Shown piece by piece: positions 7,101 through 40,395 of a stretch of DNA of 64,000 nt (position 1 is the stretch's first letter; each line of letters begins with the position of its first letter). The notes under the pieces were generated by a model, which saw only the letters and a program-made list of their open reading frames with translations, searched no databases and was not told the DNA's origin. Origin of the DNA: a virus; IMG/VR virus record IMGVR_UViG_3300010157_000040, positions 44,698 through 108,697 of that record. One strand, written 5' to 3'. The translations under genes and the position numbers were made by a program.

Positions 7101-9642
7101 CAATAATCTTAAAAGATCTCCTACAGTTGTTGTAAGAACTAAAACTGGTAATTACTATAATCCAATATTATTTCCGACAGGTGCAAATATTGGTCCAGCA
7201 TTTATTCAAGATGCTGCAGGTAATTATATTGATAATTCATTAGTTACATTAGGATATTTTCAAAATGATCATGCAAGTAATGCTGGACAATCATGGGGAC
7301 CACCAGCAAATCCAACTGGAGCACAGTTTCCAAGTTTTGATAATATCAGTATACCATTTGCACAAAACATTGCAAGTCATTATGCAGGTATAAAAGTAAG
7401 ACTAAGAAATCAATATGGACAACTTAACTCAATTAAACAAGTAGTAATAACTCCTTGTGAACAAAAGTCAAGTACATATAAAACTGCTCTTAGTTCATAC
7501 ACTTGTTTAAATGAAAATTTTTATATTAAAACAATTTTAGCTACTCCAGTATTTTTTGGAGGAGACACATATGTAAATAGATACACTGAAAAAAACACCA
7601 TGTTCTTTTTCTATGATTGGTTATATGGTCAACCTGATGGTTTTGAATTTAATTATTTATTGCATCAAATGGTTCCTGAACCAAGATTTTGGGCAAATTC
7701 TAAAGCATATGATATAACAGATCTTGCACCTACAAACTGGTCTAATCCTACTCCTGGAACTGGAGCATTACCTACTAAGTTTTATAATTTAGATAATAGA
7801 AACTATAACTATGAAGATGATAGTCATGGAAATTATCCAGGTACATTTAGAGTTAAAGAATCATTTTTCTATTTAGCTGTTTCATCTGTAAGAGATTTCT
7901 TTGTAGAAAGTGATATCATAGTAGATTTTAGAAAACCAACTACAGTAGAAGCTGAAAGATTTTATGATCCTTATAACTATACTGATCTTCCTGCTTTGTT
8001 TAATATGAATCCTGATGTAATTGCTAAAGGAGATGTATATAGATATGATTATTCATTAAGTATATCTAAATCAAATGCACAATATTCTTCTGCAGGTAAT
8101 TTGCAAAATAGAAACTATAACCCAAATGTATCTCAGTTGTGTTATGTATACTATCCAGATAGATTATATTATTCTAATCCACAACAAAATGATTCATATA
8201 ATGATGCATGGTTTATATATTTAGCAAATAACTATAATCAATTTAAGTCTCAACTTAGTGGTGTTAAATCTATTAATAAAAGTGGTTTATTTATTACATT
8301 TAAAAATGCTAGTCCATTAATGTATCAAGGTGTTGACACACTTCAAACAGAAATTGGTACTAAAATTACTATTGGTGATGGAGGTTTATTTTCACAACCA
8401 GGACAATCAGTAACTAATGCTGATGTACCATATGAGTATGGTTCATCTCAAAGTAGATTAAGTGTTATATCTTCACCTGCTGGACTTTATTACATCTCAC
8501 AAAACCAAGGTAAGATATTTAGTTATGCTGGAGGTTTAAAAGAAATATCACAAATAGGTTTAAAGTGGTGGTTTAATTTATTTTTACCATATAAACTTAC
8601 GGAAGATTTTCCTGAATATCCTTATAAAGATAATCCTGTAGCAGGTATAGGTTGTCAAACATTATATGATAATGAAAACTCTATCTTATATTTTTGTAAA
8701 AAAGATTATAAATTAAAACCGGAAACAGATAGACCAGTAGGAACAGTTACATATGTACCATTAATTACTACCGGTAAGAAAAAAGGTCAAGGAGATTATT
8801 TCCAAATAGAAGGAAGTACAGGTCAGTTTCAATTAGGTGATGAATTATTATTTGAAGATGCATCATGGACTACAAGTTTTGATCCTAAAAATGAATTCTG
8901 GTTATCTTATCATGACTGGCATCCTGATTTAGTTATCCCTAATAAAGGAAAATTCTTAACAACAAAGACTAATCAAATATGGAAACATAATGATCTTTGT
9001 GCAAATTTCTGTAATTATTACGGAACACCATTTCCTTTTGAAATAGAATTTCCAATTATTACAGGACAAACAATTACTACATTAAAAAGTATAGATTATG
9101 TTTTAGAATGTTATAGAAGATCAGAAGTTAATTGTATAGATCAACATCATGTACTTGATGTTAATTTTGATAGAGCAGTTATATTTAATACTGAACAAGT
9201 ATCAGGACATTTGAATCTTAATTTGTTTCCAAAAAATAATGTAACTTTAAGTTTAGATTATCCTAAATTAAATGTTAATCAAAACTCATATGATATTTTA
9301 TTCTCTAAAGAAGAAAACAAATATAAGTTTAATCAATACTGGGATATAACAAGAGATAGAGGTGAGTTTCCTATTGGTTCTAATTATCCTCCTACAGGTC
9401 CTGTTATTCCTGGAAGTACTTTACTATTAGGAAATTATGATAATGAAAACATTTGGATAACAGAAGCTAACGGTTATAAGAAAAAATTAAATGTTGCTAA
9501 TATTGATTATAATAAACCACAAATGCAAAGAAAGAAATTTAGACATTATATAAATTTCCTTAATCTTACAAAAGATGTATCTGGTGATATCAATATGTTA
9601 CTTAAATTAGTAAATACTAAAAATCAAATATCTCCAAGGTAA
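4135..9642 (+). CDS. Tail stabilisation / muzzle protein (P22 gp10-like beta-propeller)
   Basis: N-terminal SFTKGLNKD...ARN; SYLRDEVYAF; FGGDTYV; late YGSSQS and WTTSF...WLSYHDW motifs; 1835 aa; synteny. Confidence 0.75.
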   Translation: MGQFQNTSKELNHSFTKGLNKDSDPSFVGEGMWTHARNVVNNSKEGDLGSLSNDTSNYLCATAGSTMPLIAQQKFIIGVIHLFSGNWLIFTAGHNALGIPVMSEIGLLEESSCLYRPIVQDACLGFDKRYLISGSSRKKEDCSWQAYWADGLNPDRYINVGDPQTWPLPNEYTWLGLPITNPSTVNYYVDNLGNQILWPGVKWKQLCDDNVGCVQLVPGVWPPNCPTVNSCITCTNINELDCEKSRLARLMDTPCLKTRLGPGGGTLKNGTYFAVIAYLIKGIKVTDYFSPSNSQPVYHPDDLRGSLVIDVEADSVNFSEFSLVIVQNVNEATIAKKFGIYSTKTRTIQIDQLPMDLVTVPLSFIPIQTPIFEKSDQIAEVNSYLLRVGPTSKFDFNYQPLANQISAKWTSVEYPSNYYTKGGNKTSYLRDEVYAFFIRWIYDTGDKSASYHIPGRPPRNFTNGNVSGNETTDNINDLNTLDNTDQLFEMYNTASSTGVPTLIGTTTDDGGIILDSGDMGYWESTEVYPDTIPEIWNSSSHCWTGPIGQSGLYDLCGKPIRHHKFPDNYLNVNTVHFRKNTVTSPPNPQANEGLAIRLMGVRFENIILPKDNDGVDITGIVGYEILRGSREGNQSIIAKGMINNLRTYEIKGSVQRNRIGLYPNYPFNTIIPPMNLFNTNDNNYAYNDPFIRMPHKPNDYSVVDNQTIPTDIITFHSPDLMFSTPFLDSTEIKLYGHLQGQSSQYFAEPNGHPKWKLLADAAVLIATLVGIGEAIISIIGKRVYNQPGSSFTQQRQLEQLIYGETTVSQSINSAEWNAYTLGPLGPRFIYQQKYNAYFNSGQGILDAFTGTDFLDGYLNTFNKNGGQYGTYTAPALDRELTWTDYIPAPVQIAFDVLGGISKFLYYFSEGADVALKVIQASIRYDQYALQQIGHGFYDNMLPPLINKVQRFKMEDSFYIRDNIQEVPYYLGNVYNSSNAPITVPYRYSINNLKRSPTVVVRTKTGNYYNPILFPTGANIGPAFIQDAAGNYIDNSLVTLGYFQNDHASNAGQSWGPPANPTGAQFPSFDNISIPFAQNIASHYAGIKVRLRNQYGQLNSIKQVVITPCEQKSSTYKTALSSYTCLNENFYIKTILATPVFFGGDTYVNRYTEKNTMFFFYDWLYGQPDGFEFNYLLHQMVPEPRFWANSKAYDITDLAPTNWSNPTPGTGALPTKFYNLDNRNYNYEDDSHGNYPGTFRVKESFFYLAVSSVRDFFVESDIIVDFRKPTTVEAERFYDPYNYTDLPALFNMNPDVIAKGDVYRYDYSLSISKSNAQYSSAGNLQNRNYNPNVSQLCYVYYPDRLYYSNPQQNDSYNDAWFIYLANNYNQFKSQLSGVKSINKSGLFITFKNASPLMYQGVDTLQTEIGTKITIGDGGLFSQPGQSVTNADVPYEYGSSQSRLSVISSPAGLYYISQNQGKIFSYAGGLKEISQIGLKWWFNLFLPYKLTEDFPEYPYKDNPVAGIGCQTLYDNENSILYFCKKDYKLKPETDRPVGTVTYVPLITTGKKKGQGDYFQIEGSTGQFQLGDELLFEDASWTTSFDPKNEFWLSYHDWHPDLVIPNKGKFLTTKTNQIWKHNDLCANFCNYYGTPFPFEIEFPIITGQTITTLKSIDYVLECYRRSEVNCIDQHHVLDVNFDRAVIFNTEQVSGHLNLNLFPKNNVTLSLDYPKLNVNQNSYDILFSKEENKYKFNQYWDITRDRGEFPIGSNYPPTGPVIPGSTLLLGNYDNENIWITEANGYKKKLNVANIDYNKPQMQRKKFRHYINFLNLTKDVSGDINMLLKLVNTKNQISPR

Positions 9643-12368
9643 TGAAAAAGTATATAACAAAAAGGTCTAACATAAAAGGAGCTGGTAAAGGTTTATTTAC
9701 TAAAGCTGCATATAAAAAAGGAGAAGTAATTGGTTTAGCACATGTTAATGATCAACCTGCTACAGAAATAGGAAGGAATCATAATCATAATGAAGAAAAT
9801 CCTACTGCATATAATGAAAAAATAAATAATAAAAGATATTTATTTGCATCAAGAGATTTAAAACCTAATGAAGAAATTACTACTAACTATAGATTACAAC
9901 CTGAGTTAGAACAACCTGAAGATTTTCAAAAAAGAAAAGGTGGTACTGTATCTATGCCTACTGATAAACCTGAAAAATCTAAAAAGTTTTCTAGAAGTTT
10001 AGATGCAACCAATAGATTGTTTACAGAAAACAAATTATTTAAAATACCTAAGTCTAGAAAGAATAAAGTATTTGATCCACATGCTAAATATTATGCAGAA
10101 GGTGGTAGTTATGAAGAAGCAGAATTAACTCCAGAAGAAATAGAAGCATATAGAGCAGAAGGATATACTGTAGATGAAACTGAATATAAAGAAGGTGGTG
10201 CATACTATGATGATTCTAGAGATGCTTGGGTAGATGCAGATGGAAAAGTAGGACCTAATGGTCCAGCATATTCTAATGGTGGAGATATTTCTGTACCTTC
10301 ATTAAATCAAATGCAAGATGGTGGAACATATACATATGCAGGTAGAAAAGATTCTACATATAAAAAAGATGCAAGTGGTAATTGGTTAATTAAAAATGCA
10401 TCTACCGGAAATAAGTTTACTGCTATCAGTGATCCAAAAGGTACAAGAACTAAAACATTAAATGCACAAGCTGTACCAACTAGTACACCAAGAGCAATAG
10501 AAAAAGTATATGCATCAACAGCTGAATCTACAGATACTCCTAATATTAGAGAAAGAACAGCACTTGATGCACCATATAAAATGAATCAATATGTTAAACA
10601 TGTAAATAATGAACATGGTTTAGTTATAAATTATAAAAACAGTATTTATAATAATACAGCTTTTACACCTAAAGATAAAGATAAATATATAAATAAACTA
10701 AAAGGTAAAAACTTAGATCAACAAGCTGAAATATCTAAAAATTATTTAATGGGTCTTGCTACAGTAAAAGCTAATCAAGGTACTATAAGAGGTGTACCAA
10801 AAAAAGGTACAGCAGATTATATTGAAAGAGGTTGGGATATGGTAACAAATCCATTTGCTGCTTTTCATTATTCTGTTGCAACAGGAGATGTTAATAATAT
10901 GCCATGGCATTATAATGATGCAATGAGAAGAGGTATTAATCCAGAGAAATCATTAAGAGGTGGATCAGAAATTAGTGAAATTGCTAATACACCAAATCCT
11001 TTTGATGCAGGTGATAAAGTTGCATGGAATACAGGACAAGGAAATTATGGTGCTGCACTAATGCATGCTACAAGATTTTTACCATACACAGCAACAACAG
11101 TTGGTGCTAACATGCTTGGGGCATTAAATAGATTTGGTAATGTTGTTGAATCTGCTGCTAATTATAAACCATTAGTTGGTATATCAAGAAGTACTAGTAC
11201 TCTTGGAAGAGCATTAGAAGAAACTGCAACTCTTAATAATTCATTAAGAGTAGGAAGTATGGCTCAATCTGTGTCATTAACTCCAGATATTATATCAGAT
11301 GCAGGTGACTATATAAATTCAGGAGGTAGAAAAACTGAACAAGGAATGAATGCTTTAAAAAATACAGGTAGAGCATTATTATATGGAACATCTGCATTAT
11401 CAACAAGACCTGGTTCATATGGTTCATTAATTAATCAAAATTTAACACCATATAAAGCACCATATAATATTTATAATGACATATATAATGTATATCATAA
11501 AAAACCTAATAGAATGTCATCAGTTCCATTAGATTTATTTGGTGCTGCAAGATCATTAGCTGGTTTACGTGGAGCAAGAAAATTAGGTGGTGAACAAAAA
11601 AGTATAGAAGCAAATGTTACAGATGAAGATATACAAGATTTAATTGATCAAGGTTTTATTGTTGAAGAAGTTGATACATATTCTGAAGGTGGTGATATAA
11701 ACACAGAGATGATTAATACAGAAATAATGGATACAGAATCTCCACAAGATTTAGATCCTGTTCATATGAAAAAATATTTGAGTGACTTAAGATACTTAGA
11801 AAATGGTATTAAAAAAGGATATAAAAATGATAAATGGTATCCACATGCTAGTGTTGAAGGTGGTGCAAAAACAATTGCTTATGGACATAAGTTAGCAAAT
11901 AATTCAGAATACAAAGGTGGACTTACTGAAAAAGAAGCATTAGCATTACAAAAAGAAGATGTATTAAAACATCAATCAGAAGCAGAAAGATTAACTGATG
12001 CAAAATATGGTGAAGGTACTTTTGATAAATTACCACAAAAAAATCAAATGTTATTAGTTGACTATGCATATAATGGTGTATATAATAAATTTCCATCATT
12101 TGTAAAGAGTGTTGTAAATAATAATAAAAAAGGAATGTTAAATAATTACAAAAGATATTCTGGCAACAATCCTATTACAAATAGAAATGAATGGACTGCA
12201 GATGTAATTAATGATCAAGAAAAAACTAACAAAACTGTAGATAAAGCTAAAAAGTCAGAAAATAGTTTTATAAATAGTATTGTTCCTACTTTATATGGAG
12301 AATCTAAACCTAAAGCTAAACCACAATCAAAGAAGGTATATAACTTTATGACAGGTAAATACCAATAA
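9642..12368 (+). CDS. Virion cargo protein: N-terminal SET domain, GG-delimited modules, C-terminal lysozyme-like muramidase
   Basis: SET: SNIKGAGKGLFT...KKGEVI...NHNH...FASRDLKPNEEITTNY (about 9642-9895). Lysozyme (GH24-like): LENG...WYPH...TIAYGH...LVDYAYN...RN (about 11760-12215). Confidence 0.75.
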   Translation: MKKYITKRSNIKGAGKGLFTKAAYKKGEVIGLAHVNDQPATEIGRNHNHNEENPTAYNEKINNKRYLFASRDLKPNEEITTNYRLQPELEQPEDFQKRKGGTVSMPTDKPEKSKKFSRSLDATNRLFTENKLFKIPKSRKNKVFDPHAKYYAEGGSYEEAELTPEEIEAYRAEGYTVDETEYKEGGAYYDDSRDAWVDADGKVGPNGPAYSNGGDISVPSLNQMQDGGTYTYAGRKDSTYKKDASGNWLIKNASTGNKFTAISDPKGTRTKTLNAQAVPTSTPRAIEKVYASTAESTDTPNIRERTALDAPYKMNQYVKHVNNEHGLVINYKNSIYNNTAFTPKDKDKYINKLKGKNLDQQAEISKNYLMGLATVKANQGTIRGVPKKGTADYIERGWDMVTNPFAAFHYSVATGDVNNMPWHYNDAMRRGINPEKSLRGGSEISEIANTPNPFDAGDKVAWNTGQGNYGAALMHATRFLPYTATTVGANMLGALNRFGNVVESAANYKPLVGISRSTSTLGRALEETATLNNSLRVGSMAQSVSLTPDIISDAGDYINSGGRKTEQGMNALKNTGRALLYGTSALSTRPGSYGSLINQNLTPYKAPYNIYNDIYNVYHKKPNRMSSVPLDLFGAARSLAGLRGARKLGGEQKSIEANVTDEDIQDLIDQGFIVEEVDTYSEGGDINTEMINTEIMDTESPQDLDPVHMKKYLSDLRYLENGIKKGYKNDKWYPHASVEGGAKTIAYGHKLANNSEYKGGLTEKEALALQKEDVLKHQSEAERLTDAKYGEGTFDKLPQKNQMLLVDYAYNGVYNKFPSFVKSVVNNNKKGMLNNYKRYSGNNPITNRNEWTADVINDQEKTNKTVDKAKKSENSFINSIVPTLYGESKPKAKPQSKKVYNFMTGKYQ

Positions 12369-12369
12369 C

Positions 12370-12416
12370 TAAACTTTTCAAGTTTATGTATTAAACTAAA
12401 ATTTATTATATTTATA
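12370..12416 (+). promoter_or_regulatory. Putative late promoter/operator: inverted repeat TAAACTT-ttc-AAGTTTA plus TATATTTATA
   Basis: Perfect 7-bp inverted repeat at 12370-12386 and TATATTTATA at 12407-12416; similar layout at 20525-20571. Confidence 0.55.
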
Positions 12417-12430
12417 ATAGAACTAATAAT

Positions 12431-15400
12431 ATGAAAAAGAAAGTAAGAATATACAGAGCACAAGATGGTATTGGTAAGTTTTTGCATAAAAAACAAGAAG
12501 GTGGTATGCTTGATGTAAATGAAAGAGGTTACCCAGGTCAACAAGAGCAAACTCCTGTAACTCAAGAACAATTGACTCAGTTAGTTGTTAATGATATATC
12601 TCAAGGTATTTCTAAAGAACAAGTGATTGTTAAACTTGCTACTGTACATGGATTAGATCCAATGCAAGCTAGTCAATTTTATGATCAAATTTTTGGATTA
12701 TTAGAAGATCAAAAACAAAAAGATATTGACAGTGTTGAAAATCCAGATGAAACAGAAACTGTAGACAATCCTGAAGAAGAAGTTGTAGAAGAAGAAACTC
12801 CAGATACATTAAATTATGATCACACAAGTAATGCAGGTTTAGATATTGCACAAGAAGATGATGGTTTAGATGTTGCTAATGAAGATTTAGGAACTCTTGA
12901 ATCTGATCTTATAATGAGAAGAGGTGGTTTAGTTAGAGCAGATGAAGGTGCAAGTATAGATGATACACTTTGGAATACACAAACTTATCCAATTCAATTT
13001 CCTGGTATGGATACATACTTACCTGATAATACAGGTATGGATCAATATATAAATCAACAAAATACACAGACTGTTGCAGATAGAGCATACCCAGATCCAA
13101 CTGGTGGAATGTTAAATAATACTGACACAGCATCTAATTATGCAGAACGTGTACCAGATCCTAATGCAGATACATCAGAATATAAAAAAGGTGGTACATA
13201 TAAAACTGATAAAAGGAAGTTTGTTAATTCAATTCTTAACTTAGTTAAGAAACAAATGGGTGGACAAGAAAAACCTATGTCTAATGATGCAGATCCTACT
13301 GGACAAAATGTTAGAACAAATAATTTACAAGCATTTATTGGTACAGTAAAAAATCAAAGTCAAATTGCTATTGCTAAAAAAGAAGCAGAAGAACAGTATG
13401 ATAAGATGATGCAGCAACAACAGATGATGATACAACAACAACAACCACCAATGTATCCTATGGCACAAGAAGGTGGTATGTATCCTAATATGGATGAAGA
13501 TCCAGAAAATCCTATGCATCATTTAGAAGCATATGCAAATACAACACATGGTATTTTTGATCAACCAATGGTTGGACTTTCTCAAGCACAGTATGGTGGT
13601 AATACAGAAGGTTGTTTTCCTACACAATTACCTAATGGTCAAGTAATTACTAATTGTTTTCCAAGACAAGAACAAAGAGATGAAAATCAAAGACAAATTG
13701 ATGCAGGATCATATGATGGTTTAGGTGCTACACAAGAACAAGATATTGATAGAGGTAATTATCCAAAAATATTTGATCCTAATGAATCTCATGTAACTAA
13801 TTTTCCAAAAAGATTTGATCCTTATGCACCTCATGTACCTAGTTATGTTAATTATGGTAATGGTCAAGTAATGTATACTCCAAGAAGAAGACAAACTAAT
13901 ATAGGTGTGATACCTGGTATGCAAGGATTACAAGGTATGCCTAATTTTGGTTATGGTAATGGTATGCCTCCTATTACTAAATTAGATGTAAGAAGATCTG
14001 GTTTGTTTGGTAGACCAAGAAGATATACTGCAGAGTTTGGACAAGGTGCAATGTTACCGGGTCAACAAGGTTCTGGTATAGGTTTTTATGGTTATGGTGC
14101 ACCTGAAATAAAAAAGTCACCTGCTAGAGTTATAGTAGAAAATGTTGCATCAACGGTTAATAATGAAGCTATAAAAGAAGTAGCAAAAGTAACTCCGGGA
14201 AGTACAGCAACTACAACTGCAGTTGATCCAAATAAAAAAGCTACTGAAGTAAAAGTTGTTCCAGGAAGTGGATCTGGTTCTGGTTCTGGAACAGGTAATA
14301 CTAATAAGAAATCTAATACAGGTAATTCAACACCAATTAAATCTAATGAAGAAGTTGTTATTGATCCAAAAACTGGTTATGCAAGTAAAGATCAATTTAA
14401 TGTTAGACAAGGAATAAAAATTGGTAATGTTGCTTTTGTAACAGATTTAAAAAATAATGATTTGTACACACAAATGCAAGATGTGTGGACAGGTAATCCT
14501 GTTGAAAATGAATGGAAAAAAAATGATCCAACATATATGCCATCTAAAGGTGGTGCAAAAAATGTAAATAGTAATCCTACTATAGGACCTAATGGTGAAA
14601 AACGTCATACATTAGGAAGAATGTATCCTGGTGAAACTAATGCACATTTTAATCAAAGAGTAAAAGAATATAATGCAAAACCATGGTATGAAAAAATGGT
14701 TAACACAAATCCAGAAAAAGAATGGGCTGATAGTCAAAGTAATAACTATAATGATGTAGGACCTATGCAATACCTTGCACCAACATCAGTTGGTTCAGGT
14801 GCTATACTTGGTGCAGGAAAATTATCTGCAGAAGTTGCAAAAAAACTTGCAAGTAAAGTAGCACCAAAAGTTGCTAAAGTAGTTAGTAAAGTAGCAAAAA
14901 CACCAGCACAAGTAAAAGCAGCAAAAGCACTTGCATCTCAGAAAGCAATGTTAAGACAAATTAATAAAGGTAATTATGGGTATCACGAAGAAGGTGGTAT
15001 TATAGATACATCTACTATAGATCCAAATAATCCTGAGTTAATGAGATTTGTATATGGTGGTAATGATCCTTATGTTACACAACAAGATATAAACTATAGT
15101 AACTCTAAAGATGTAACAGATCCATATTTTCAAGGTGGTGGTGAATTAACTGATGAAGAACAGAAAGAAGCAGATGCAGCAGTATATGATAAAATCAATC
15201 CTGAAATTTTAGCACAAATTCAGAAAGAACAAGCAGCATCTTCACCAAATCCATATATGGAACCTGTTGGTCAAAGAGATAAAAGTTTACCTGATTCTGC
15301 TAATAGAGAAAACTATAGTAGATTAGTTGAAAATGGTAAAGTGTATACTGGATATAATCCAGATCATAAGTATGTAGGTGCTGATTATGTACCTAAAAAT

Positions 15401-18214
15401 ACTACTACCCAACAATATCCTCAAGGATACTATCCACAACAAGGTGGTTACAATCCAAATTTTTTACAAAAGTTTTTTCCAGGTAATTTACCACAAGTTG
15501 TTGGTTCTTACGGAGAAATGAAAAAAATGTATGATCCAAAAACTGGTTTACCATATACTGGAGGATTTGGTCCTGGTACACAACTTACTAAACTAGATGT
15601 AAGAAAATCACGTTTAAATGGAGATCCAAAAAAATACACTATGTATTTTAATAATTCAGAAATGGATCCAAGAAAACAAGGTTTAATTAGTCTTGATGGT
15701 CAAGGTAATGGTTCTGGAAATGGTCATGGAAATGATAATACAAACTATAGTGATGATAGATGGGGAAGACATGATGAAAGATATAATGCTAGAAATAAAA
15801 GAAGATTAAATAGACATGGCATTGATGTACCAGAAGAAACAAGAGATAATCCATATTTAAATGAACGTGAAGATGTTCAAACTCAAATAGATACAGAAGG
15901 TAATTCTATTCCATTAGGAGAAAACAAATATAATTCTAACGTTGTAAATACAAGTACTGCAGTTTTAGATAATAATGGTATTCCAATGACTGATGATGGT
16001 TCTAACTTAATGATAGAAAATCATCCAGATTTCTCTTCAGTATCTCCATCTGAATCATCTAATGTTAGAGAAGATATTAAACTTAATCCAGAAGCAACTA
16101 AACTTGCTGCACAAAAAGCATATGGAGAATATGGTGATGTTTCTGCAGAATTTGGTAACAATGGTCCTCAATTACAAGAAGCATTTAATAATATATTTGC
16201 AACACAAGGTCAAGATGCAGCTGATGCAATGATGTCAAATGCATTTAAAGAAAGAAATGCAAATATTAAAGACATGCCGGTTGAACAACCAGTTGAACAA
16301 ACAGCTGAACAACCTATTGATGAAGCTACAGGTGAACCTATTAATGTACCTACTGATCAACCAGTAAATGAATCTAATGTAGATAATTCTGATGCTGTAT
16401 CAGAAGCACCAATGCAGAAAATTAGTAGTAATAATTCTGCAATAGATTTTATGAATAATTACAATACTAATCCTGAGTTTGCTGCAATGGTAGATGATGC
16501 TAAAAATAGAGCACAAGGAACAAATGGTGATTGGTATGGAACAGGAGATAGTCAGAATTTAGAATCACCTACTGTTCGTGATATGGCAAACTATAATAAT
16601 GAAGCAAATGCATTAAATAAATTTACATCTGCAATAGATGAAGATCAATATGCACAACAAGAAGGTTTACCAATAAGACAAGCACATATAGATCAGAATA
16701 CTAATTATCCTGATAAAATAGAAATGCCTGCGGAATTACAAGATTGGCAAAACAAACAAAATATAAATAATAGTAATAATCAAGTTGTTAATAATAAAAA
16801 CCCTAGACAAGGTACAAACCAAAACAATAGAGGTAATAGTAAAGTTGATAATAAAATAAATACTAAATTAAATAATATTGATATTAAGGAAAATCCATAT
16901 CCAAAAGATTCAGAAATGCATTATGTATATGAAGAGTTAACACCTGAAGAGAAAAAATTACATAAAATAGCTAATATAAAAAATGAATCAAAACGTCAAG
17001 GAGATAAAAATAATAGAAATAAAGAACTTGAAGTATTTAATCATTCAAATGAAGGAAGAGAACAGTATTATAATAACTTAGATAGAGGTGCAGCTCAACA
17101 ATATTATAAATCTGATATAGAACCTAAAATTACTCAAACAACAAATGCATATAATAATGCAATTGATGCAGCTAAAACAGATGCAGCAAGAAATAAACTT
17201 GTAAAAGAAAAAGAAATTGCCTTAAATAATATTAATAAACAATTCTTTAAAGGTATTGATTTTGATCAAGCAGGTTCACAATATACTCCACCTCCAAAAA
17301 ATATTACAGAAGGTAATGACTTTAGAAAATATATGCATGAGTTTTATCCTAACATAAGTAAAAGTTTTAATTTAGATGTTAAAGGAAATATTAATTCAAG
17401 TGAATTTAAAGATGTTTGGAATAAGTATGGTGCAAGATTTTTATATGGTAATCGTTCAGATGATCAAAAAGTAAAAGTTAGAAATACTATAAAAAGTCAT
17501 ATGGGTGCTTTTGGACATCTTAGAGATGGTGGTGCATTAAATAAATTTATTCCTAAAGCATCACCAGGATTAGAAGTTGGTTCACCAGTTACCTATACAG
17601 GTAATAAAGCACTAGAAGGAATGACTGATGTACAAATGATTAGTCTTAATCCAGGTATACAAGATTTAAATCCATCTTCTCTAACAGGTTTCATGAATAA
17701 TAATAATAATGCACCTGCTAGAAATATGTCACAAGATCCTGCACAAATGAATATAGATAAAAACCAAATTGAAAGTCAAAATGCAGAAAAAGTTTATAAT
17801 CCTAATGGAGACTTTGCAATAGATATTAAACAAAAAAACATGTATGAAGTAGATCCTGAAGTTTTATTACAAACAGGTAATGCACTTGGTAGAGGTTATG
17901 CAGGAATGATGAATAATATACAAAATCGTAAAAATACACGTAACATGTATAACGATCTTAATGCAGATAATTTATATTCAGCAACTACTGATAGAGACAG
18001 AGGAGATTATACTAAGTCTGGTTCTGCAAGAGGTGAGTTAAGATTTGATGAACAAGGTGCTAATAGTACTGGTAGATTTGCACAATACGGTGGAACATCT
18101 AATGAAGATAATATGTATGACCAAGGTGGTTATTTTGATGGTGATGAAGCATACATGACAGAAGATCAAATTAAACAGTTCTTAGAAGCTGGAGGAGAAA
18201 TAGAATATTTATAA
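12431..18214 (+). CDS. Large low-complexity virion cargo protein with many xxxGG motifs
   Basis: 1927 aa, Q/N/G/D/E-rich and probably largely disordered; between muzzle and ejection genes; duplicated TKLDVR module. Confidence 0.6.
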   Translation: MKKKVRIYRAQDGIGKFLHKKQEGGMLDVNERGYPGQQEQTPVTQEQLTQLVVNDISQGISKEQVIVKLATVHGLDPMQASQFYDQIFGLLEDQKQKDIDSVENPDETETVDNPEEEVVEEETPDTLNYDHTSNAGLDIAQEDDGLDVANEDLGTLESDLIMRRGGLVRADEGASIDDTLWNTQTYPIQFPGMDTYLPDNTGMDQYINQQNTQTVADRAYPDPTGGMLNNTDTASNYAERVPDPNADTSEYKKGGTYKTDKRKFVNSILNLVKKQMGGQEKPMSNDADPTGQNVRTNNLQAFIGTVKNQSQIAIAKKEAEEQYDKMMQQQQMMIQQQQPPMYPMAQEGGMYPNMDEDPENPMHHLEAYANTTHGIFDQPMVGLSQAQYGGNTEGCFPTQLPNGQVITNCFPRQEQRDENQRQIDAGSYDGLGATQEQDIDRGNYPKIFDPNESHVTNFPKRFDPYAPHVPSYVNYGNGQVMYTPRRRQTNIGVIPGMQGLQGMPNFGYGNGMPPITKLDVRRSGLFGRPRRYTAEFGQGAMLPGQQGSGIGFYGYGAPEIKKSPARVIVENVASTVNNEAIKEVAKVTPGSTATTTAVDPNKKATEVKVVPGSGSGSGSGTGNTNKKSNTGNSTPIKSNEEVVIDPKTGYASKDQFNVRQGIKIGNVAFVTDLKNNDLYTQMQDVWTGNPVENEWKKNDPTYMPSKGGAKNVNSNPTIGPNGEKRHTLGRMYPGETNAHFNQRVKEYNAKPWYEKMVNTNPEKEWADSQSNNYNDVGPMQYLAPTSVGSGAILGAGKLSAEVAKKLASKVAPKVAKVVSKVAKTPAQVKAAKALASQKAMLRQINKGNYGYHEEGGIIDTSTIDPNNPELMRFVYGGNDPYVTQQDINYSNSKDVTDPYFQGGGELTDEEQKEADAAVYDKINPEILAQIQKEQAASSPNPYMEPVGQRDKSLPDSANRENYSRLVENGKVYTGYNPDHKYVGADYVPKNTTTQQYPQGYYPQQGGYNPNFLQKFFPGNLPQVVGSYGEMKKMYDPKTGLPYTGGFGPGTQLTKLDVRKSRLNGDPKKYTMYFNNSEMDPRKQGLISLDGQGNGSGNGHGNDNTNYSDDRWGRHDERYNARNKRRLNRHGIDVPEETRDNPYLNEREDVQTQIDTEGNSIPLGENKYNSNVVNTSTAVLDNNGIPMTDDGSNLMIENHPDFSSVSPSESSNVREDIKLNPEATKLAAQKAYGEYGDVSAEFGNNGPQLQEAFNNIFATQGQDAADAMMSNAFKERNANIKDMPVEQPVEQTAEQPIDEATGEPINVPTDQPVNESNVDNSDAVSEAPMQKISSNNSAIDFMNNYNTNPEFAAMVDDAKNRAQGTNGDWYGTGDSQNLESPTVRDMANYNNEANALNKFTSAIDEDQYAQQEGLPIRQAHIDQNTNYPDKIEMPAELQDWQNKQNINNSNNQVVNNKNPRQGTNQNNRGNSKVDNKINTKLNNIDIKENPYPKDSEMHYVYEELTPEEKKLHKIANIKNESKRQGDKNNRNKELEVFNHSNEGREQYYNNLDRGAAQQYYKSDIEPKITQTTNAYNNAIDAAKTDAARNKLVKEKEIALNNINKQFFKGIDFDQAGSQYTPPPKNITEGNDFRKYMHEFYPNISKSFNLDVKGNINSSEFKDVWNKYGARFLYGNRSDDQKVKVRNTIKSHMGAFGHLRDGGALNKFIPKASPGLEVGSPVTYTGNKALEGMTDVQMISLNPGIQDLNPSSLTGFMNNNNNAPARNMSQDPAQMNIDKNQIESQNAEKVYNPNGDFAIDIKQKNMYEVDPEVLLQTGNALGRGYAGMMNNIQNRKNTRNMYNDLNADNLYSATTDRDRGDYTKSGSARGELRFDEQGANSTGRFAQYGGTSNEDNMYDQGGYFDGDEAYMTEDQIKQFLEAGGEIEYL

Positions 18215-18223
18215 ATTTACACT

Positions 18224-23500: not shown

Positions 23501-23686
23501 GGTGATTATATGCAAACAATTAATTATCAAACTTGGAACCCAAATACAAATTCATATGATAATCAAACAGTAGTAGATAATTCAACTGTTTTTGGAGCAA
23601 ATTTGGAAAACAGTAGAGATGATTTTACACAATGGATAGATAATATGAAAATCCAGAATAAACTTATAGCCAATGGCAACTACTGA
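20591..23686 (+). CDS. Ejection/cargo protein
   Basis: 1031 aa, helical/coiled-coil, N-terminal YIPQFQPFQPD, no Cys seen; precedes the giant ejected proteins. Confidence 0.55.
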   Translation: MATYLQGVTDYIPQFQPFQPDLNFYSNILQTKQSQYDTNWKALNTMYSQYYNADLTRTENADKKDQYIKGIDFNLKRVSQLDLSLEQNVDQATQVFKPFYQDKGLMKDMAWTKNYNAAVGRAESLKTAYDDKQRGQYWATGVTELNYLKDEFKNTTSDKAMNFGNVSYTPYVNVSEKAQKIAKDFGNMETPSFSKDGKFILKTKNGEQLIEPLSKLFESRLGDDPSVQALYKTQAYVNRKDYAYSNAAQFNGDKNAAEMKYLETSFTLLKEKSTARYNALKENSQGYTDKIANLQKQVDDKTASPEIQKQLADLKMNKDINDKVLTRSEEEQKTLNGGQSSTATTTTGFVNPYGDLESLRWKVDNGMASTLMQKDLNESAQLFAYSNYKQDIEANPYAVLEEKNRFSMQQIAARNAGLERAVKLKVAGDAKNTLNAARIAAGTHYLDEETGQVVPYEAFQNIISEPSDQAHTDKLNLKETSKRINDVQAQTTGIPYLKNTVGLIQKLVTEHSMTQQEASAILGYDKNPNISLDSFSKKLDKYGVNWMRNEVGAKNLHQIEKEMTTWLGRNSEQSGLNSEQYQAYRKSAIRFDDYTKYLKEDHEWRKTTSFEVERELRKQGLHGADYLYDNGGNLRTREEFIDIMEKKGKIDSQESKHEIIVSKIDKLANEKHKLLEDRYNNGKHFKNGIEAQQALHKANDSELKAFDQEIIKLRHQLPENLRNGYEMGKIKGNMYDNYEALVNAAGKVYTSGRIKKPLPGMAQFGEMEGTGTFAPRVNTILVNPKGHGPTSVFAGEVFRDLDNNIDWGDNTKNRASFRGFNKGSWDNHSNGDLNSTFRQVYEAMRNEQNTAKSKMGNYKITVSPLAAGSINKVAIVIKPDLTWLKTQVYNVDKDGNQNSPGTISYEQFKNISTYGMNMITDAKNMTNSLYTTAYQSPLQSYVDHHEGGYVYTDPLNPNYNLTIQKGAKGGGDYMQTINYQTWNPNTNSYDNQTVVDNSTVFGANLENSRDDFTQWIDNMKIQNKLIANGNY

Positions 23687-38500: not shown

Positions 38501-40395
38501 ATTCTTTAAAAACTAATAAAGATTATTTAAAGTTTAAATCAGATTTTAAATCTGCAGGTGTAGATGAAAGTAAATTAACTGATGTAGCATATGAAGCATA
38601 TCTAAATCAAAGAGCATTAATAAATGCATTTAATAGAGAAGCAATTATGGGTATGGAAGATTATTCATATACTGATATGGTTTTAAATATGGTAGAAGAA
38701 TTTTCTAACTTAAAACATAAGTATCCAATTGTTAATCAATTCACTAAACCTAAAGTTGTTACAAGAAATATACACGGTCAGGTACTTAAAGAAAATTATG
38801 TTTTAACATTAAATGATGTTAAAGAATTAAAAGATGGTCAACTTGCAGAAGTATATTACCAAAATATAAAAGATCTTGGAGATGAAACTGTAAAGAAAGT
38901 ATCTAATATAGAAGATAATAAAAGAATTAGTAAATTATTTAGTCTGTTGCCTATGATGATGATATATCAACATGGTTTAGGATATAGTAAATATGGATTT
39001 AATGAAGCATTACCATATAATGATTTTATAGGTGTAATGCAAACAGCAGCAGATATTTATGAAGATAAAATTCTTAATGAACAATCTTTATATTCTATTT
39101 ATAATTTACTAATGAATGAGAATAATGCAAACTTTAAAGATTATGTTGCACCAAGAGCTAAAGATTATAAAAATCCAGTTGCTAGTGAATTCTCAAATCC
39201 TGTAGTAACAACTGTTGAAGAATTAGATGATAGCATGAGAGCATTATTAATGAAAAATGCTGTTCCTGTAGTACAACCATCTACTAATGTTGAATATAAT
39301 TATAATCCATCAAATGTATCTGAGCAAACAAGAGATGATTATAAACAATATGTATTAAAACAACTTGGAAAACCTGAAATTAAAGCTAAAGCAAATGCAT
39401 TTGATTTTATATATCCAGATTTAACAATTACAATATCTAAAGATGGTTCTCTTAGTTACACAAATGTTAATCAAAAAATTGTAGATTTATCTAAAACAGA
39501 TTCTGGATATGATCTTAAATTTATGGTTGGTTTAAATAAATTAGCTGAAGAGTTTACTCAACCATCTGCTAGTGTTGAAACAGAAGTAGTAATTCCAGGT
39601 GTTGAAATTAAAAGAAATGTTATAACTAAAGAAGAACAACTTGAGTTATTTAATATTCTTAAACCTTATATTGAAAAACAAGGAGCCACAACCAATAAAG
39701 CTACTAGTGCAAATGTAATGATTGGATTAGGTTTAAGATGGGATTATAAATCAAATAATCCTAATTATAAAGCTATTGAAATAAAAAATATTATTGTACC
39801 TGGAAGTAGTGCTAAGTATGGTTATTATGAAGTATCTATTAATGGTCAACCATTAGGTCCTATTAATCCTAGAATTAAAACATTAATGTCTAAAGCTACT
39901 GGTATAGATGCTACTGATTATGATGGGGCTATAATAAATCTTTATACAGATAAAACTTTTATAAGTGCTCATAATGATGTAGATGAAGCTGCTGATGCTA
40001 TTGGATATCCTGTACTTGTTTTAAATATAGGTGGAAGTGGCAATTTTAGTGTACAACAAACTGGAAAATATGAACCTACTCCTCTTAATTCTGGAGACTC
40101 ATATATTTTTGGAATAAATGGAGAAAACAGAAAAGTAATGCATAGAACTTTTCCTTCTAAACAAGATGGATTTTTACCTGCAATAACTACAGCAATAGAT
40201 GGAGAAACTTATTCAAAAGGAAGTTATAGATTATCTATTACTTTAAGAAGAGTAAAAAATCTAAAACCAGGAATGCCTACAGTACCAGCTAAAGTTGTTA
40301 CTCAACCATCTACTAGTGAACCTACAGATATAGTTAAAACAATTAGTCCTAATGGTAAACCACCAATTGAAAGAACATCATCAGATTGTGAATAA
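29572..40395 (+). CDS. Virion-packaged RNA polymerase (crAss-like/phi14:2 gp66 type) with zincin domain and C-terminal AlkB-like domain
   Basis: Catalytic RIPVQG...GADFDVDKL (DxDxD near 36493) and DGQG motif; zincin HEAWH...EEIIAEEF (about 32080-32230); 2OG-Fe(II) motifs INLY, HND, H, RLSITLR (about 39590-40255). Confidence 0.88.
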   Translation: MKITCSLKQSQIEKLYANIYGHLLDSQNKGKTFDSKGYMINLFNKIATKGDVETAAKFLQQVPTLIGTASFRPSLEELGLPTDMLRPLIKSFKNEDAGLLNVVSYFNPTLNINVQQELIDQSEKNAFVVPENDSETVTKDLFDYLPYDSFSTTFQEFLTVDPDKAATNEQLDVNRKVIYATLKELKKTIGTTPNLGKLVYQNVTLKLVPQRLDTADTDELDKTTKRLQNRSEFLNRKGVAQPNVTKPNEIFLMIISNEIGEPVYFNDEGSITTKEEGGKQVYQFLRDARKKGDRYTVTDIYGKDNQILNAKELATLMDKNSKIKLSKEEFNNLVAELDKKQQEEFKQLYNFRQRLIKGEIPLINITDVSQGIKEYTNKEITLSNIRRYPFGTDHVFKTIQTIKTPRGQFKKGEATITIEGQEFKIDRPNLTDDLIKKIATVLTDKNLSKELRYRFYSQFLANKASLATRKHTLSYTPVTDELIFSYSKKTFQEGYDSKFTDVMLDSDTAYTEIYDALKLASGKNGNYFSAKMTYNKDLLNINGYQDYNLDTKELSEDFIPYIPLLETLPNTKVDASVTSNPRFFNSYMKFALPNEFTQQLEEAQNSSNDAEKDDFFETLSAPSDVENLMPSEKKKVIVDTLKSDKKIVGTITKPFGSDTKWKFITAKGTTIDFYSHTNNITDLDTVAQANLNLLPEVDFNGKVMTDVVEVRIGDKVIGYVRETDDFDKVNIVEPTKSQEEIDAEIEEKINPKNTSHPSEDSLFFTRSGDLTNNVTESEIKDAHTWWAKSDLTKHIGFKEAVNIVNSDAYARFMTYGARLNGTLGTIEIANKGSMVDVYHEAWHGFSQLYLTRKQKTSLYKEVRRKLGRNKKLSFFEIEEIIAEEFREYAKNPKPKPDSPVRNTIFRIILNFLREVFGKGSVTNVRDIKKVQELFDNLYLNKNLNKYTPTIDNVMFDLLYRNSGIVKPGTLTDQVLDRQDSNLIKDSMDSIISDLVDSDNGIKGNKSGTLAILLDSRNRDELYKLININLNKSLSHYKSTLEKLDDKDENKNTKEVLENRVRILQAAVDNYGNSKSGVIQYHIENSTFDLIKQKYTTLELDEEGNLFDPNNTDNTERYGDTKVGEKSLIQLAGKETLYILKSLHEVVDGKIKYNELGYKKLAPFRTTWNNTVRAISGLQDPQEMYDKLVEESKVSPEFKQLTENKLANPLNSKNPNEQKAITSFWQDFNKPRVPYIQFTIFKKTDENPKGSSEVTEASIETKTVINKFQNKFKADINSVYIKRIGKENIPTLDISEIVKDFSDANGNLDISKSYEFARAIGFYLDDIGIIKNTLKKDESTIQQFGLPYIFNAVKVLNRKDKLPVKSALVSKWISKFKTNPIKTLTEAIPVGVIGPDIFKQKNKVEALARLQGRYGVDSSNFGVFNAERNLVFEHIDNNSITKIVYALNNAEKLSDLWESDKFNYTKFLDPKINSFTNRSGILRSLFDMRDPKKSKLKDRDLELFMNSGTQVEQSAVGLNTTSLDVNSKMLQEMNTMLKGGVQEFMRHASKSSSFGARINGGIVGKPGKQGSDERLWVDIDMFAKNIAHDYAFTAHLLPYMESEAERIFKCNSNLDTFKNYVGYNRELSNGRIAGQEFTAFDNVLTDNTKELIYAAINKAIKNKELFNLGTFLKNNPTLLSTVKKETAFYFADQTRENLYKLTTSNYISPSLREKLNVFNITEDAQDKVLVDAYTYNAWIHNFETASLFYGDIVQYNHDKEEMHKRNTGATSGGRTFRTDISAQNFANGYLADTSYAKKHNATPISYNGTFNTAIIKDIERTSIYYPDFEKALREDYTKRFSKVLDKSKVAAAVEDRVAKEIKKYKDMEEGDGQGWITFDAYRLLKTNENSWSNAQEVLFQKINNNQPIEATEITEMFPVYKLQNFGHLANTDLLAPINAMHKFALMPLIPSMIEGTDLESLHQQMMSKNIQYLTFQTGSKVGSVTSNGKADQIYDANSDEKILKTDIKFTPNTIYVDYLKNVTAVPSKFKNKTVFSTQLRKLILSNLYENGKIINSDNTKAIKEYEAAVDHHSNLLKLELLNEIGYEHDVKNNKYYGNVDKFLDVVQAELEKRDLPEHLIQMVGLTRDKSLRTDLSLHLKADEIEKILVALVEKRLIKQKVKGEALVQVSSAMTNGIWDQKTKFKNATVADVKKFMGSNNLPFYHQDASGNTLAMKVAIALQGDFVNLLKLNHLDGQPIGTRARLNDMIKEDKWLDLNDNRKSVTLSAVRIPVQGLNSMEFMEVYEFLDPAAGNIIIPPSEIVAKSGADFDVDKLTTFMPHIDYKGNYVKGQLSNEELLKKVNKLNETPEGKKLATNLIKSQKSASENNLIATIRGILELKDNFASLIRPNDTYLLKEIADELQDHVTDYNRFGNVHNENRTGLKNQKVISPTRVLEAGYNLHKHEANMVGKRVLGIIAVENALHPIFNAIGAAMPKTYKESSYVGNKYIDGKIDYDTRILLPTNMTKDGRISLSGTETSDGMDNIGELFSQMLNGAVDVEKDAWIFFIQGNYELIPMLTFLFKAGVPKEQAIMFVSQPLVREYAKQQREVKSAYATLTGVVPEDYNPMFAKYTAAQNTLEGKNLNSVINKATALKVKDVLSLQGDTEIKFAENKVYKTKKASTILKEIKDGTIDPTKITYMVNNETGEKIFKPIGKHPVSNANFYYTAKAATENKKEFSLEELKQNVVDNDSTSPQAIAAFLHLLEIEKSSKGFSVLKMQANPDTKTSKTIQEIIKRNLSLEDIKELSKLEPGLVDKLQKSILGTFFDNKLIKDLVVPVFQLRNNDVVTSTILKLLDKNSNSIAEKFGKGQDGASQFITQFKNAIPNYIYQNYMSHFIDKAGNLTDTPTEFNELTVKNVAGTTNGAKVVGNNIYVDTERLRNEFENKLYTRESTLEGNYKESGLRGFKLQDDMFPNLSSYVRYVYEREYQRHLYPIDSLKTNKDYLKFKSDFKSAGVDESKLTDVAYEAYLNQRALINAFNREAIMGMEDYSYTDMVLNMVEEFSNLKHKYPIVNQFTKPKVVTRNIHGQVLKENYVLTLNDVKELKDGQLAEVYYQNIKDLGDETVKKVSNIEDNKRISKLFSLLPMMMIYQHGLGYSKYGFNEALPYNDFIGVMQTAADIYEDKILNEQSLYSIYNLLMNENNANFKDYVAPRAKDYKNPVASEFSNPVVTTVEELDDSMRALLMKNAVPVVQPSTNVEYNYNPSNVSEQTRDDYKQYVLKQLGKPEIKAKANAFDFIYPDLTITISKDGSLSYTNVNQKIVDLSKTDSGYDLKFMVGLNKLAEEFTQPSASVETEVVIPGVEIKRNVITKEEQLELFNILKPYIEKQGATTNKATSANVMIGLGLRWDYKSNNPNYKAIEIKNIIVPGSSAKYGYYEVSINGQPLGPINPRIKTLMSKATGIDATDYDGAIINLYTDKTFISAHNDVDEAADAIGYPVLVLNIGGSGNFSVQQTGKYEPTPLNSGDSYIFGINGENRKVMHRTFPSKQDGFLPAITTAIDGETYSKGSYRLSITLRRVKNLKPGMPTVPAKVVTQPSTSEPTDIVKTISPNGKPPIERTSSDCE
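39274..40318 (+). repeat. Three in-frame direct repeats CAACCATCT[AG]CTA[AG]TG, cores starting at 39274, 39559 and 40303
   Basis: GTACAACCATCTACTAATGTTGAA / ACTCAACCATCTGCTAGTGTTGAA / ACTCAACCATCTACTAGTGAA; spacings 285 and 744 bp, both multiples of 3. Confidence 0.85.

Follow-up and report, generated by a model that had tools for sequence, protein, structure and literature searches.

The virus record IMGVR_UViG_3300010157_000040 of IMG/VR (108,697 bp, estimated completeness 91%) encodes, in its 3' 64 kb, a 908-residue protein whose residues 1-95 are predicted by structural modelling to form a genuine, cut-down SET fold. These 64,000 nucleotides, positions 44,698 to 108,697 of the record, constitute the window analysed here. 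The gene directly follows that of the muzzle, the tail-tip gatekeeper protein of crAss-like phages, and the protein ends with a domain resembling the GH24 muramidases. The catalytic motifs of the SET domain are conserved, the synteny with the muzzle gene recurs in relatives, and modules are swapped among them. On balance, we consider it probable that this protein is an ejected, modular virion component whose muramidase opens the wall and whose leading SET head methylates a host protein as an accessory effector.

The SET fold and its departures from studied SET domains

A SET signature at the N-terminus had been proposed in an initial annotation made from the sequence, and its motifs are found at the expected places: G13-A-G-K-G17-L-F, G27-E-V-I30, N48-H49-N50, A69-S-R-D-L73 and E77-E-I-T-T-N-Y83, followed by a closing K-R-K-G-G. 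Profile and structure comparisons agree with this assignment, to a degree well beyond chance. Scanned alone, residues 1-103 match Pfam SET (PF00856) with 28.3 bits (E 2.4e-6; cut-off 22.4); the whole 908-residue protein scores 17.4 bits, under the cut-off, and its relatives P0004, P0039 and P0105 score 31.1, 23.6 and 39.7 bits. Against PDB sequences, phmmer with the domain alone gave marginal matches to Set1 only (E 0.08-0.4) and a profile built from a very wide alignment (A1) gave no match. In the phmmer alignment to a yeast-type Set1, N48-H49 falls on the NH of NHCCEPSC and EEITTNY on EELTYDY, with Y83 at the position of the Tyr.

The AlphaFold2 model of residues 1-108, computed from a 50-sequence alignment, has a mean predicted local distance difference test (pLDDT) score of 80.4, with a core at about 90 and values below 50 from residue 99. 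It shows the SET beta-fold, in which the C-terminal segment packs against the NH loop. Foldseek retrieved 151 PDB matches for this model (E <= 1e-3, probability 1.0) and, among the matches listed, all named entries are SET or PR-SET domains. Superpositions with VIA-align on EZH2, MLL1, Set1, SET7/9 and vSET gave Z scores of 12-12.7 and root-mean-square deviations (rmsd) of 1.4-2.5 A over 79-86 residues, with 27-31% identity. The best match in a library of predicted viral structures is A0A218ML49, a 971-residue "SET domain-containing protein [uncultured virus]" (38% identity), followed by SET proteins of giant viruses and "uncultured Caudovirales". The start of the domain at nt 9642 stands as first annotated, whereas its end had been set too early, at nt 9900: with its conserved tail, the domain reaches nt 9926.

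Its make-up is a SET-N part, no SET-I insert and a SET-C part (N48-H49, E78 to Y83) continued by the tail Q86-PELEQPED-F95. The motifs for cofactor binding and catalysis are present, as judged from 227 copies of the domain extracted from relatives: the Gly-rich (GxG) cofactor strand reads G15-K-G17-L-F, with G17 invariant and G15 kept in 198 copies; N48-H49 of the NH(S/C) cofactor motif are invariant; and the ELxF/YDY motif with the catalytic Tyr appears as EEITTNY, where E78 and Y83 are invariant. The NHN found here in place of the canonical NHS or NHC, pointed out at the outset, proved to be a minor variant, the third position being S in 118, N in 78 and D in 25 of the copies.

This domain departs from the studied SET domains in several respects. 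In the enzymes studied so far, the SET-I insert forms part of the substrate groove. Here only 13 residues separate H34 from N48, and model residues 1-94 align over 117-123 residues of MLL1 and EZH2; from this gap and the compressed alignment to MLL1, EZH2 and vSET, the insert is therefore missing. The Cys-rich post-SET region is also absent, and the family is devoid of Cys in 220 of the 227 copies. After the catalytic Tyr comes instead a near-invariant family tail, R84-x-Q-P-E-L-E-Q-P-E-D-F95, with a helix predicted at residues 92-98. This QPELEQPEDF tail is without counterpart in canonical SET domains and persists in divergent, stand-alone forms (L041, L042 and L045); it might take over the post-SET role, with F95 as the aromatic cap. 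At the Phe/Tyr-switch position, the first Tyr of ELTYDY, the window's copy has Thr81, and the family has T in 204, V in 17 and A in 5 copies. A small side chain at this switch is expected to leave space for multiple methylation, which Thr81 should thus permit.

A close known counterpart is vSET (A612L of Paramecium bursaria chlorella virus 1, a chlorovirus; PDB 3KMA), a virion-packaged enzyme that targets the chromatin of its host at an early stage of infection and has been called the smallest histone methyltransferase (PMC7019647). The comparison, already drawn in the initial annotation, is a fair one. The two viral domains are alike in being minimal and in lacking pre-SET and Cys-rich post-SET regions, and their structures match with a Z score of 12.2 (rmsd 1.6 A, 79 residues, 27% identity). 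They differ in that vSET is a free, dimeric protein of 119 residues, from a eukaryotic virus and directed at histone H3K27, whereas the phage domain is the first module of a 908-residue protein and its host has no histones. The phage domain is also about 20 residues shorter, its model residues 1-83 aligning to vSET residues 3-105, and differs by the lack of the SET-I strands, the Thr at the Phe/Tyr switch and the QPELEQPEDF tail. With MLL1, EZH2, Set1 and SET7/9 it has in common the fold and the GxG, NH and ELxxxY motifs; unlike them, it lacks both SET-I and the Zn/Cys post-SET.

Methylation of protein lysines by SET domains is a hallmark of eukaryotic chromatin control, and to our knowledge few SET substrates have been described in prokaryotic cells. 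Nucleoid proteins are among those reported, with Hc1 methylated by Chlamydia cpnSET and MC1-alpha by Methanosarcina Go1-SET (PMC10117894). These two enzymes show that SET domains can take non-histone, DNA-associated substrates in prokaryotic cells (PMC10117894). They differ from the phage domain, to which about 25-31% identity is expected at best, in being cellular, stand-alone and larger.

Distribution of the SET module and its place beside the muzzle gene

A full phmmer scan with residues 1-108 against 1.84 billion representative proteins, clustered at 50% identity, returned 369 clusters at E <= 1e-3, including 231 at E <= 1e-10, and recovered solely the phage family of the domain itself. 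The best 150 of these 369 clusters have at least 47% identity over about 95 residues, in proteins of 73 to 3301 residues, and the module is N-terminal in 151 of the 227 copies. None of these copies departs from the window's sequence at ten positions (S9, I11, G17, G31, H34, G44, N48, H49, E78 and Y83), and the cofactor and catalytic motifs are under strong purifying selection.

Over the 31 loci with both genes, mean identity to the window's copy is 58% for the SET domain versus 52% for the muzzle, which is the best-conserved tail protein, and the identity of the SET domain spans its whole 95 residues at 50-85%. The 290 homologues of the 908-residue protein are mosaic in sequence downstream of the N-terminus, and good alignment of the full-length homologues (60-85% identity) is limited to the first 100-190 residues. 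With conservation on a par with that of the muzzle, in a protein that is otherwise mosaic, the module evolves like a core gene.

The cultured phages of INPHARED yielded no SET-module homologue, and their top match was at E 0.1 in Pseudoalteromonas phage PH1. A search of 185,579 species genomes gave a single close copy, on a mis-binned 4.4-kb contig of a metagenome-assembled genome; the other matches are distant cellular SET domains of Lewinella type and from Pacearchaeota, with 25-31% identity. A prophage or cellular origin of the module was rejected on these grounds, and its near-absence from species genomes therefore marks it as phage-borne. More distant SET domains (36-41% identity) occur at the C-terminus of 276-279-residue phage proteins located elsewhere in other phages (L046-L053, for example around nt 7455-8294 in L046); no muzzle homologue was detected in their fetched flanks. 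These proteins probably correspond to PHROG 34170, of unknown function.

The protein encoded immediately upstream in the window matches Pfam crAss_MUZ with 84.4 bits (cut-off 27) and PHROG 37948, a virion structural protein, at E 8e-50. By the Pfam match, the phage is crAss-like, an uncultured member of this group. Its closest cultured relatives, Cellulophaga phages phi17:2 and phi4:1 and the Flavobacterium FPSV phages, are distant, with about 25% identity in the muzzle. In the order of the genome, the genes of the large terminase, the portal and the major capsid protein are followed by tail genes including collagen-like fibres, the 1835-residue muzzle open reading frame (ORF), the SET ORF and six further large ORFs (767-3607 residues). 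A replication module (DNA polymerase, primase and helicase) comes after the large ORFs, on the opposite strand. ORFs on the minus strand of this region are short, with a bias towards AT. The ATG of the SET ORF overlaps the stop codon of the muzzle gene (TAATG), an arrangement by which the two genes would be translationally coupled.

This neighbourhood was examined in 50 IMG/VR loci, fetched with their SET-domain alignment. In 31 of them, a gap of 0-3 nt lies between the end of a muzzle homologue and the SET ORF that follows. In L010 the SET copy lies deep within its ORF (around residue 656), with the muzzle homologue further upstream. Two loci show the reverse order, the SET ORF standing immediately upstream of a muzzle-like ORF (L037:8001-9866 and L041:7752-8081), and in L041 it encodes a free-standing protein of 109 residues.

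The question whether SET varies at this locus among relatives, raised in the initial annotation, received a positive answer: among the 120 best full-length homologues, 19 have no SET. The clearest case is L061, whose muzzle is 59% identical to the window's: the ORF at the equivalent overlapping start (L061:6998-9802, 934 residues) has a different head of about 95 residues, ..DPRGQWEHPGQNTRIP..ITMQGV.YPV..KKGG, followed by the equivalent Lys-rich neck and terminal motif. The alternative N-terminal head of the SET-less relatives matched no Pfam family and gave no useful lead in the Atlas. Where the SET head is present in relatives, the domains fused to it include GH24, SLT, phage tail lysozyme, Amidase_2 and PG_binding_1. 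Taken together, the sequences of these loci describe a swappable module of apparently accessory nature.

Layout of the 908-residue protein and the putative cargo block

The coordinates of the SET-headed protein, of its parts and of the main neighbouring features are collected in the table below.

Table. Positions in the window of the SET-headed protein, its modules and related features (aa, residues of the encoded protein)
Feature	Position (nt)	Strand	Basis
Muzzle (tail-tip gatekeeper) protein gene, 1835 aa	4135..9642	+	Pfam crAss_MUZ PF25731, PHROG 37948
908-aa modular protein: SET head, neck, helical middle, GH24-like domain	9642..12368	+	ORF list; 290 homologues
Predicted minimal SET domain, aa 1-95	9642..9926	+	Pfam SET, AlphaFold2, Foldseek, VIA-align
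K-R-K-G-G junction closing the SET module, aa 97-101	9930..9944	+	Gly-Gly conservation, module swaps
Lys/Arg-rich neck, aa 102-155, ..SRSL.ATNRLF..KPKSRKNKVFDP.AKYY.EGG	9945..10106	+	Conserved in relatives
First copy of the ~20-aa motif, ELTPEEIEAYRAEGYTVDE, then ..EGG, aa 162-186	10125..10199	+	Motif scan
Middle region, aa 290-658, predicted helical	10509..11615	+	A2 alignment, AlphaFold2
Second copy of the ~20-aa motif, NVTDEDIQDLIDQGFIVEE ..SEGG, aa 659-684	11616..11693	+	Motif scan
GH24-like muramidase domain, aa 700-858	11739..12215	+	Sub-threshold Pfam Phage_lysozyme, conserved residues
Next giant ORF, 1927 aa, ending with the ~20-aa motif, Cys 0.10%	12431..18214	+	ORF list, motif scan
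AlkB-like 2-oxoglutarate (2OG)-Fe(II) oxygenase domain, aa 3344-3559 of the 3607-aa ORF (29572-40395)	39601..40248	+	PF13532, 46.5 bits (cut-off 31.2)

Insertions and module swaps in relatives start at the K-R-K-G-G junction (residue 97 onward), whose two Gly are kept in 164 and 199 of the 227 family copies, respectively. The neck is conserved both in SET-headed relatives (consensus of A1) and in SET-less ones (consensus of the alignment A2, and L061). The middle region is 25-29% identical to relatives in A2, and its AlphaFold2 model (residues 290-678, 22 sequences) is all helical. Because many relatives end at the second motif copy, with their lysozyme sited elsewhere in the protein, the 908-residue protein reads as three joined units: SET with neck, helical middle and lysozyme.

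The muramidase announced for the C-terminus is less well supported than the SET domain. Pfam Phage_lysozyme (PF00959) scores 15.6-17.8 bits on this protein, under the cut-off of 22.3, and no PDB sequence matched the region. At least 95% of 31 relatives nevertheless share E720, E739, T744 and G748-H749, which follow the GH24 pattern of a catalytic Glu and an Asp/Glu...Thr pair ahead of a G-H turn; we take the first three to be the equivalents of T4 lysozyme E11, D20 and T26. The region is 46-60% identical to relatives, among which P0004 scores 26.3 bits, above the cut-off, and others have a precomputed PF00959 annotation. In INPHARED the lysozyme region alone found matches, weak ones, in Alteromonas N4-like phages.

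The view of the protein as virion cargo, also put forward initially, is in keeping with the position of its gene directly after the muzzle gene of a crAss-like phage. In crAss001, the gene following that of the muzzle gp44 encodes gp45, a cargo protein (C1) of 842 residues found in the virion by mass spectrometry, with residues 214-245 inside the tail barrel and residues 425-552 on the portal; it is proposed to be ejected from N- to C-terminus and first among the cargo proteins (PMC10172136). The SET-headed protein has the same gene position and a similar size; it differs from gp45 in its domains, neither SET nor lysozyme being reported for gp45 (neither term is used for it in PMC10172136).

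Independent support for a cargo role comes from the hydrolase domain, the coupling to the muzzle gene, the complete lack of Cys and a motif in common with the next ORF. The role fits because a peptidoglycan hydrolase domain makes sense on a particle-borne entry protein. In the same manner, T7 gp16 is a large internal, ejected phage protein pairing a peptidoglycan-cleaving domain with other functions, and the present protein likewise combines a hydrolase domain with other functions in one large chain; we know of no ejection protein of the gp16 type with a protein methyltransferase domain.

The block at 9642-46297 is poor in Cys. The 908-residue protein contains none, and of the six other giant ORFs five have at most 0.1%, including a 1031-residue one that is also devoid of it, the exception being the 767-residue one (1.04%). 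By comparison, Cys accounts for 1-3.5% of the residues in tail, fibre and muzzle proteins and for 0.5-1.5% in the replication proteins. Lys amounts to 9-10% in the SET-headed protein and its neighbours. Packaging and ejection of this protein are thus what we infer from synteny, from the peptidoglycan hydrolase domain and from the Cys-free composition.

The motif of about 20 residues, ELT(P/D)EEIxx(Y/F)xxGG(Y/W)I(V/I)E(E/D), occupies residues 162-180 and 659-678 of the 908-residue protein and forms the last 19 residues of the 1927-residue ORF (nt 18155-18211). In the window and the 50 loci, 30 closed ORFs bear it, and in 19 of these it comes at most five residues ahead of the stop (1-2 residues in the cases listed), for SET-headed ORFs as well as for the giant ORF that follows (loci L008-L035). 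When internal, it marks module joints. The motif may correspond to Pfam DUF7210, which matches the C-terminus of P0050 with 23 bits, below its cut-off, and it could be a packaging or docking tag. Gly-Gly pairs, often after K, E or Q and at module borders (window 9642-20527), number 11 against 6.2 expected in the 908-residue ORF, 18 against 14.3 in the 1927-residue ORF and 10 against 5.9 in the 767-residue ORF.

Other members of the block have features of their own. The 1927-residue ORF beside the SET gene contains, at nt 14807-14987, a Lys/Ala-rich stretch resembling H1 and Hc2 (AKKLASKVAPKVAKVVSKVAK...), a candidate DNA-binding segment and a candidate substrate of the SET domain. A Cys-poor ORF of 1965 residues (23673-29570) has a PD-(D/E)XK nuclease at residues 1589-1676 (Pfam 23.8 bits; PHROG 298, exonuclease) and may be an ejected nuclease. 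The 1956-residue ORF (40427-46297) bears a LysM peptidoglycan-binding motif at residues 1644-1672 and a weak match to an endolysin-family PHROG, and may supply a second wall-directed module of the cargo block. An ADFDVD motif at residue 2308 of the 3607-residue ORF may serve a virion RNA polymerase for metal binding; this motif is the sole hint of such an enzyme, none having been recognised among the giant ORFs by PHROGs or Pfam. The fusion of a nucleic-acid dealkylase to the C-terminus of this giant cargo protein is unusual.

This dealkylase had been read, in the initial annotation, as an eraser-type partner of the SET methyl writer. The AlkB-like domain is real, but nothing ties it to the SET domain. 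AlkB-family enzymes are established as dealkylases of nucleic-acid bases and do not demethylate lysine, and the writer/eraser pairing was therefore rejected.

Proposed role, competing explanations and significance

The 908-residue protein would be an ejected virion protein (cargo or ejectosome) built from swappable modules, the C-terminal GH24-like domain of which would cut peptidoglycan during entry. Its 95 N-terminal residues would represent a stripped-down, probably active methyltransferase, predicted to depend on S-adenosylmethionine (SAM). The analogy with crAss001 gp45 suggests that the distal end of the tail would house this head, which would be the first part to exit the virion; on meeting SAM in the host cytoplasm, it would methylate one or several lysines of a host protein at the onset of infection. 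It would then act as an accessory take-over or counter-defence effector rather than as a structural necessity, and the swappable-head layout suggests that crassviruses use the N-terminus of their first ejected protein as an effector slot. The more specific proposal that many environmental crAss-like phages, including freshwater ones, inject at the front of this protein a 95-residue SET domain that writes methyl-lysine on a bacterial protein within seconds of adsorption is tentative, and we put it forward as a possibility slightly short of even.

Several points weigh against an ejected effector. Without SET-I, a SET domain of 95 residues might be unable to bind a substrate alone. Ejection proteins that form channels have been proposed to place their N-terminus in the outer membrane or periplasm, and a SET head in such a location would find no SAM. 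The module is also absent from the searched collection of cultured phages. Homology to gp45 was detected neither by BLASTP (best E 0.009, over 36 residues) nor by hhalign (probability 0.2), and the model of the middle region, with a mean pLDDT of only 43, is too poor for a fold search against the portal-binding domain of gp45; what supports the designation as cargo is therefore its position, its domain logic and its composition.

An active SET domain could also work earlier, in the producing cell or in the particle, on phage proteins such as the Lys-rich cargo or its own neck, thereby tuning DNA binding, protease resistance or ejection. SAM is certain to be available in the producing cell, the Lys content of the block and its H1-like stretch offer potential substrates, the relative P0105 combines SET with a sub-threshold match to HC2 (histone-H1-like), and the action of cpnSET on Hc1 and of Go1-SET on MC1-alpha provides precedents (PMC10117894). 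However, SET-less relatives keep the Lys-rich neck to the same degree, so that it does not co-vary with SET, and the replacement of the head by an unrelated module in L061 is contrary to a role essential for assembly. We regard this explanation as unlikely.

The ejected effector must also be weighed against a non-catalytic use of the fold, as a docking or plug domain that would anchor the cargo protein by its N-terminus to the muzzle or the tail barrel. Conservation over all 95 residues at about the level of the muzzle, the adjacency of the two genes in most of the loci and the near-invariant tail with its predicted helix, foreign to canonical SET domains, would all suit such a plug, as would the unassigned 14-residue helix that binds the crAss001 muzzle from inside (PMC10172136). 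The strictly invariant residues are nevertheless the SAM-binding and catalytic ones (G17, N48-H49, E78 and Y83), which favours, as far as sequence conservation can tell, an active enzyme over a scaffold. Moreover, the tail is kept in the short stand-alone ORFs, only one of which (L041) adjoins a muzzle-like ORF, and the module is dispensable at the locus, as L061 illustrates; a pure docking function seems distinctly improbable. It is more improbable still, to the point of being hardly credible, that the protein is unpackaged and acts late in the cytoplasm or at lysis, its gene merely lying within the structural module: the lack of detectable gp45 homology would agree with this, but the TAATG coupling to the muzzle gene, the position in an uninterrupted row of giant Cys-poor ORFs and the terminal motif common with the next one speak against it, as does the fact that large multi-domain peptidoglycan hydrolases of tail modules are typically virion-associated.

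SET domains, viral SET proteins and the packaged vSET are already known, and UniProt automatically labels relatives of the present protein "SET domain-containing protein". No paper found in the searched literature describes a SET domain on virion proteins of crassviruses or other phages, and from the searched papers no phage is known to deliver a SET enzyme. Text matches to "SET domain" in PMC10172136 and PMC9022992 were set aside, as they refer to C2-set and I-set immunoglobulin domains. What is new is a SET core trimmed below vSET, with a C-terminal tail of its own, that heads a putative entry protein of a phage and can be exchanged.

The module defines the smallest SET core maintained by selection, of about 95 residues and without SET-I or Cys, and such a minimal core is useful for enzyme engineering and for understanding the minimal requirements of SET domains. 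If the proposed injection is true, it would be the smallest SET known, a bacterial-virus counterpart of vSET and, among phages, the first case described of a protein-lysine methyltransferase delivered by the virion, with a nucleoid, transcription or defence protein as candidate bacterial target. It would thereby point to a concrete early step of host take-over in an abundant and poorly cultured group of phages.

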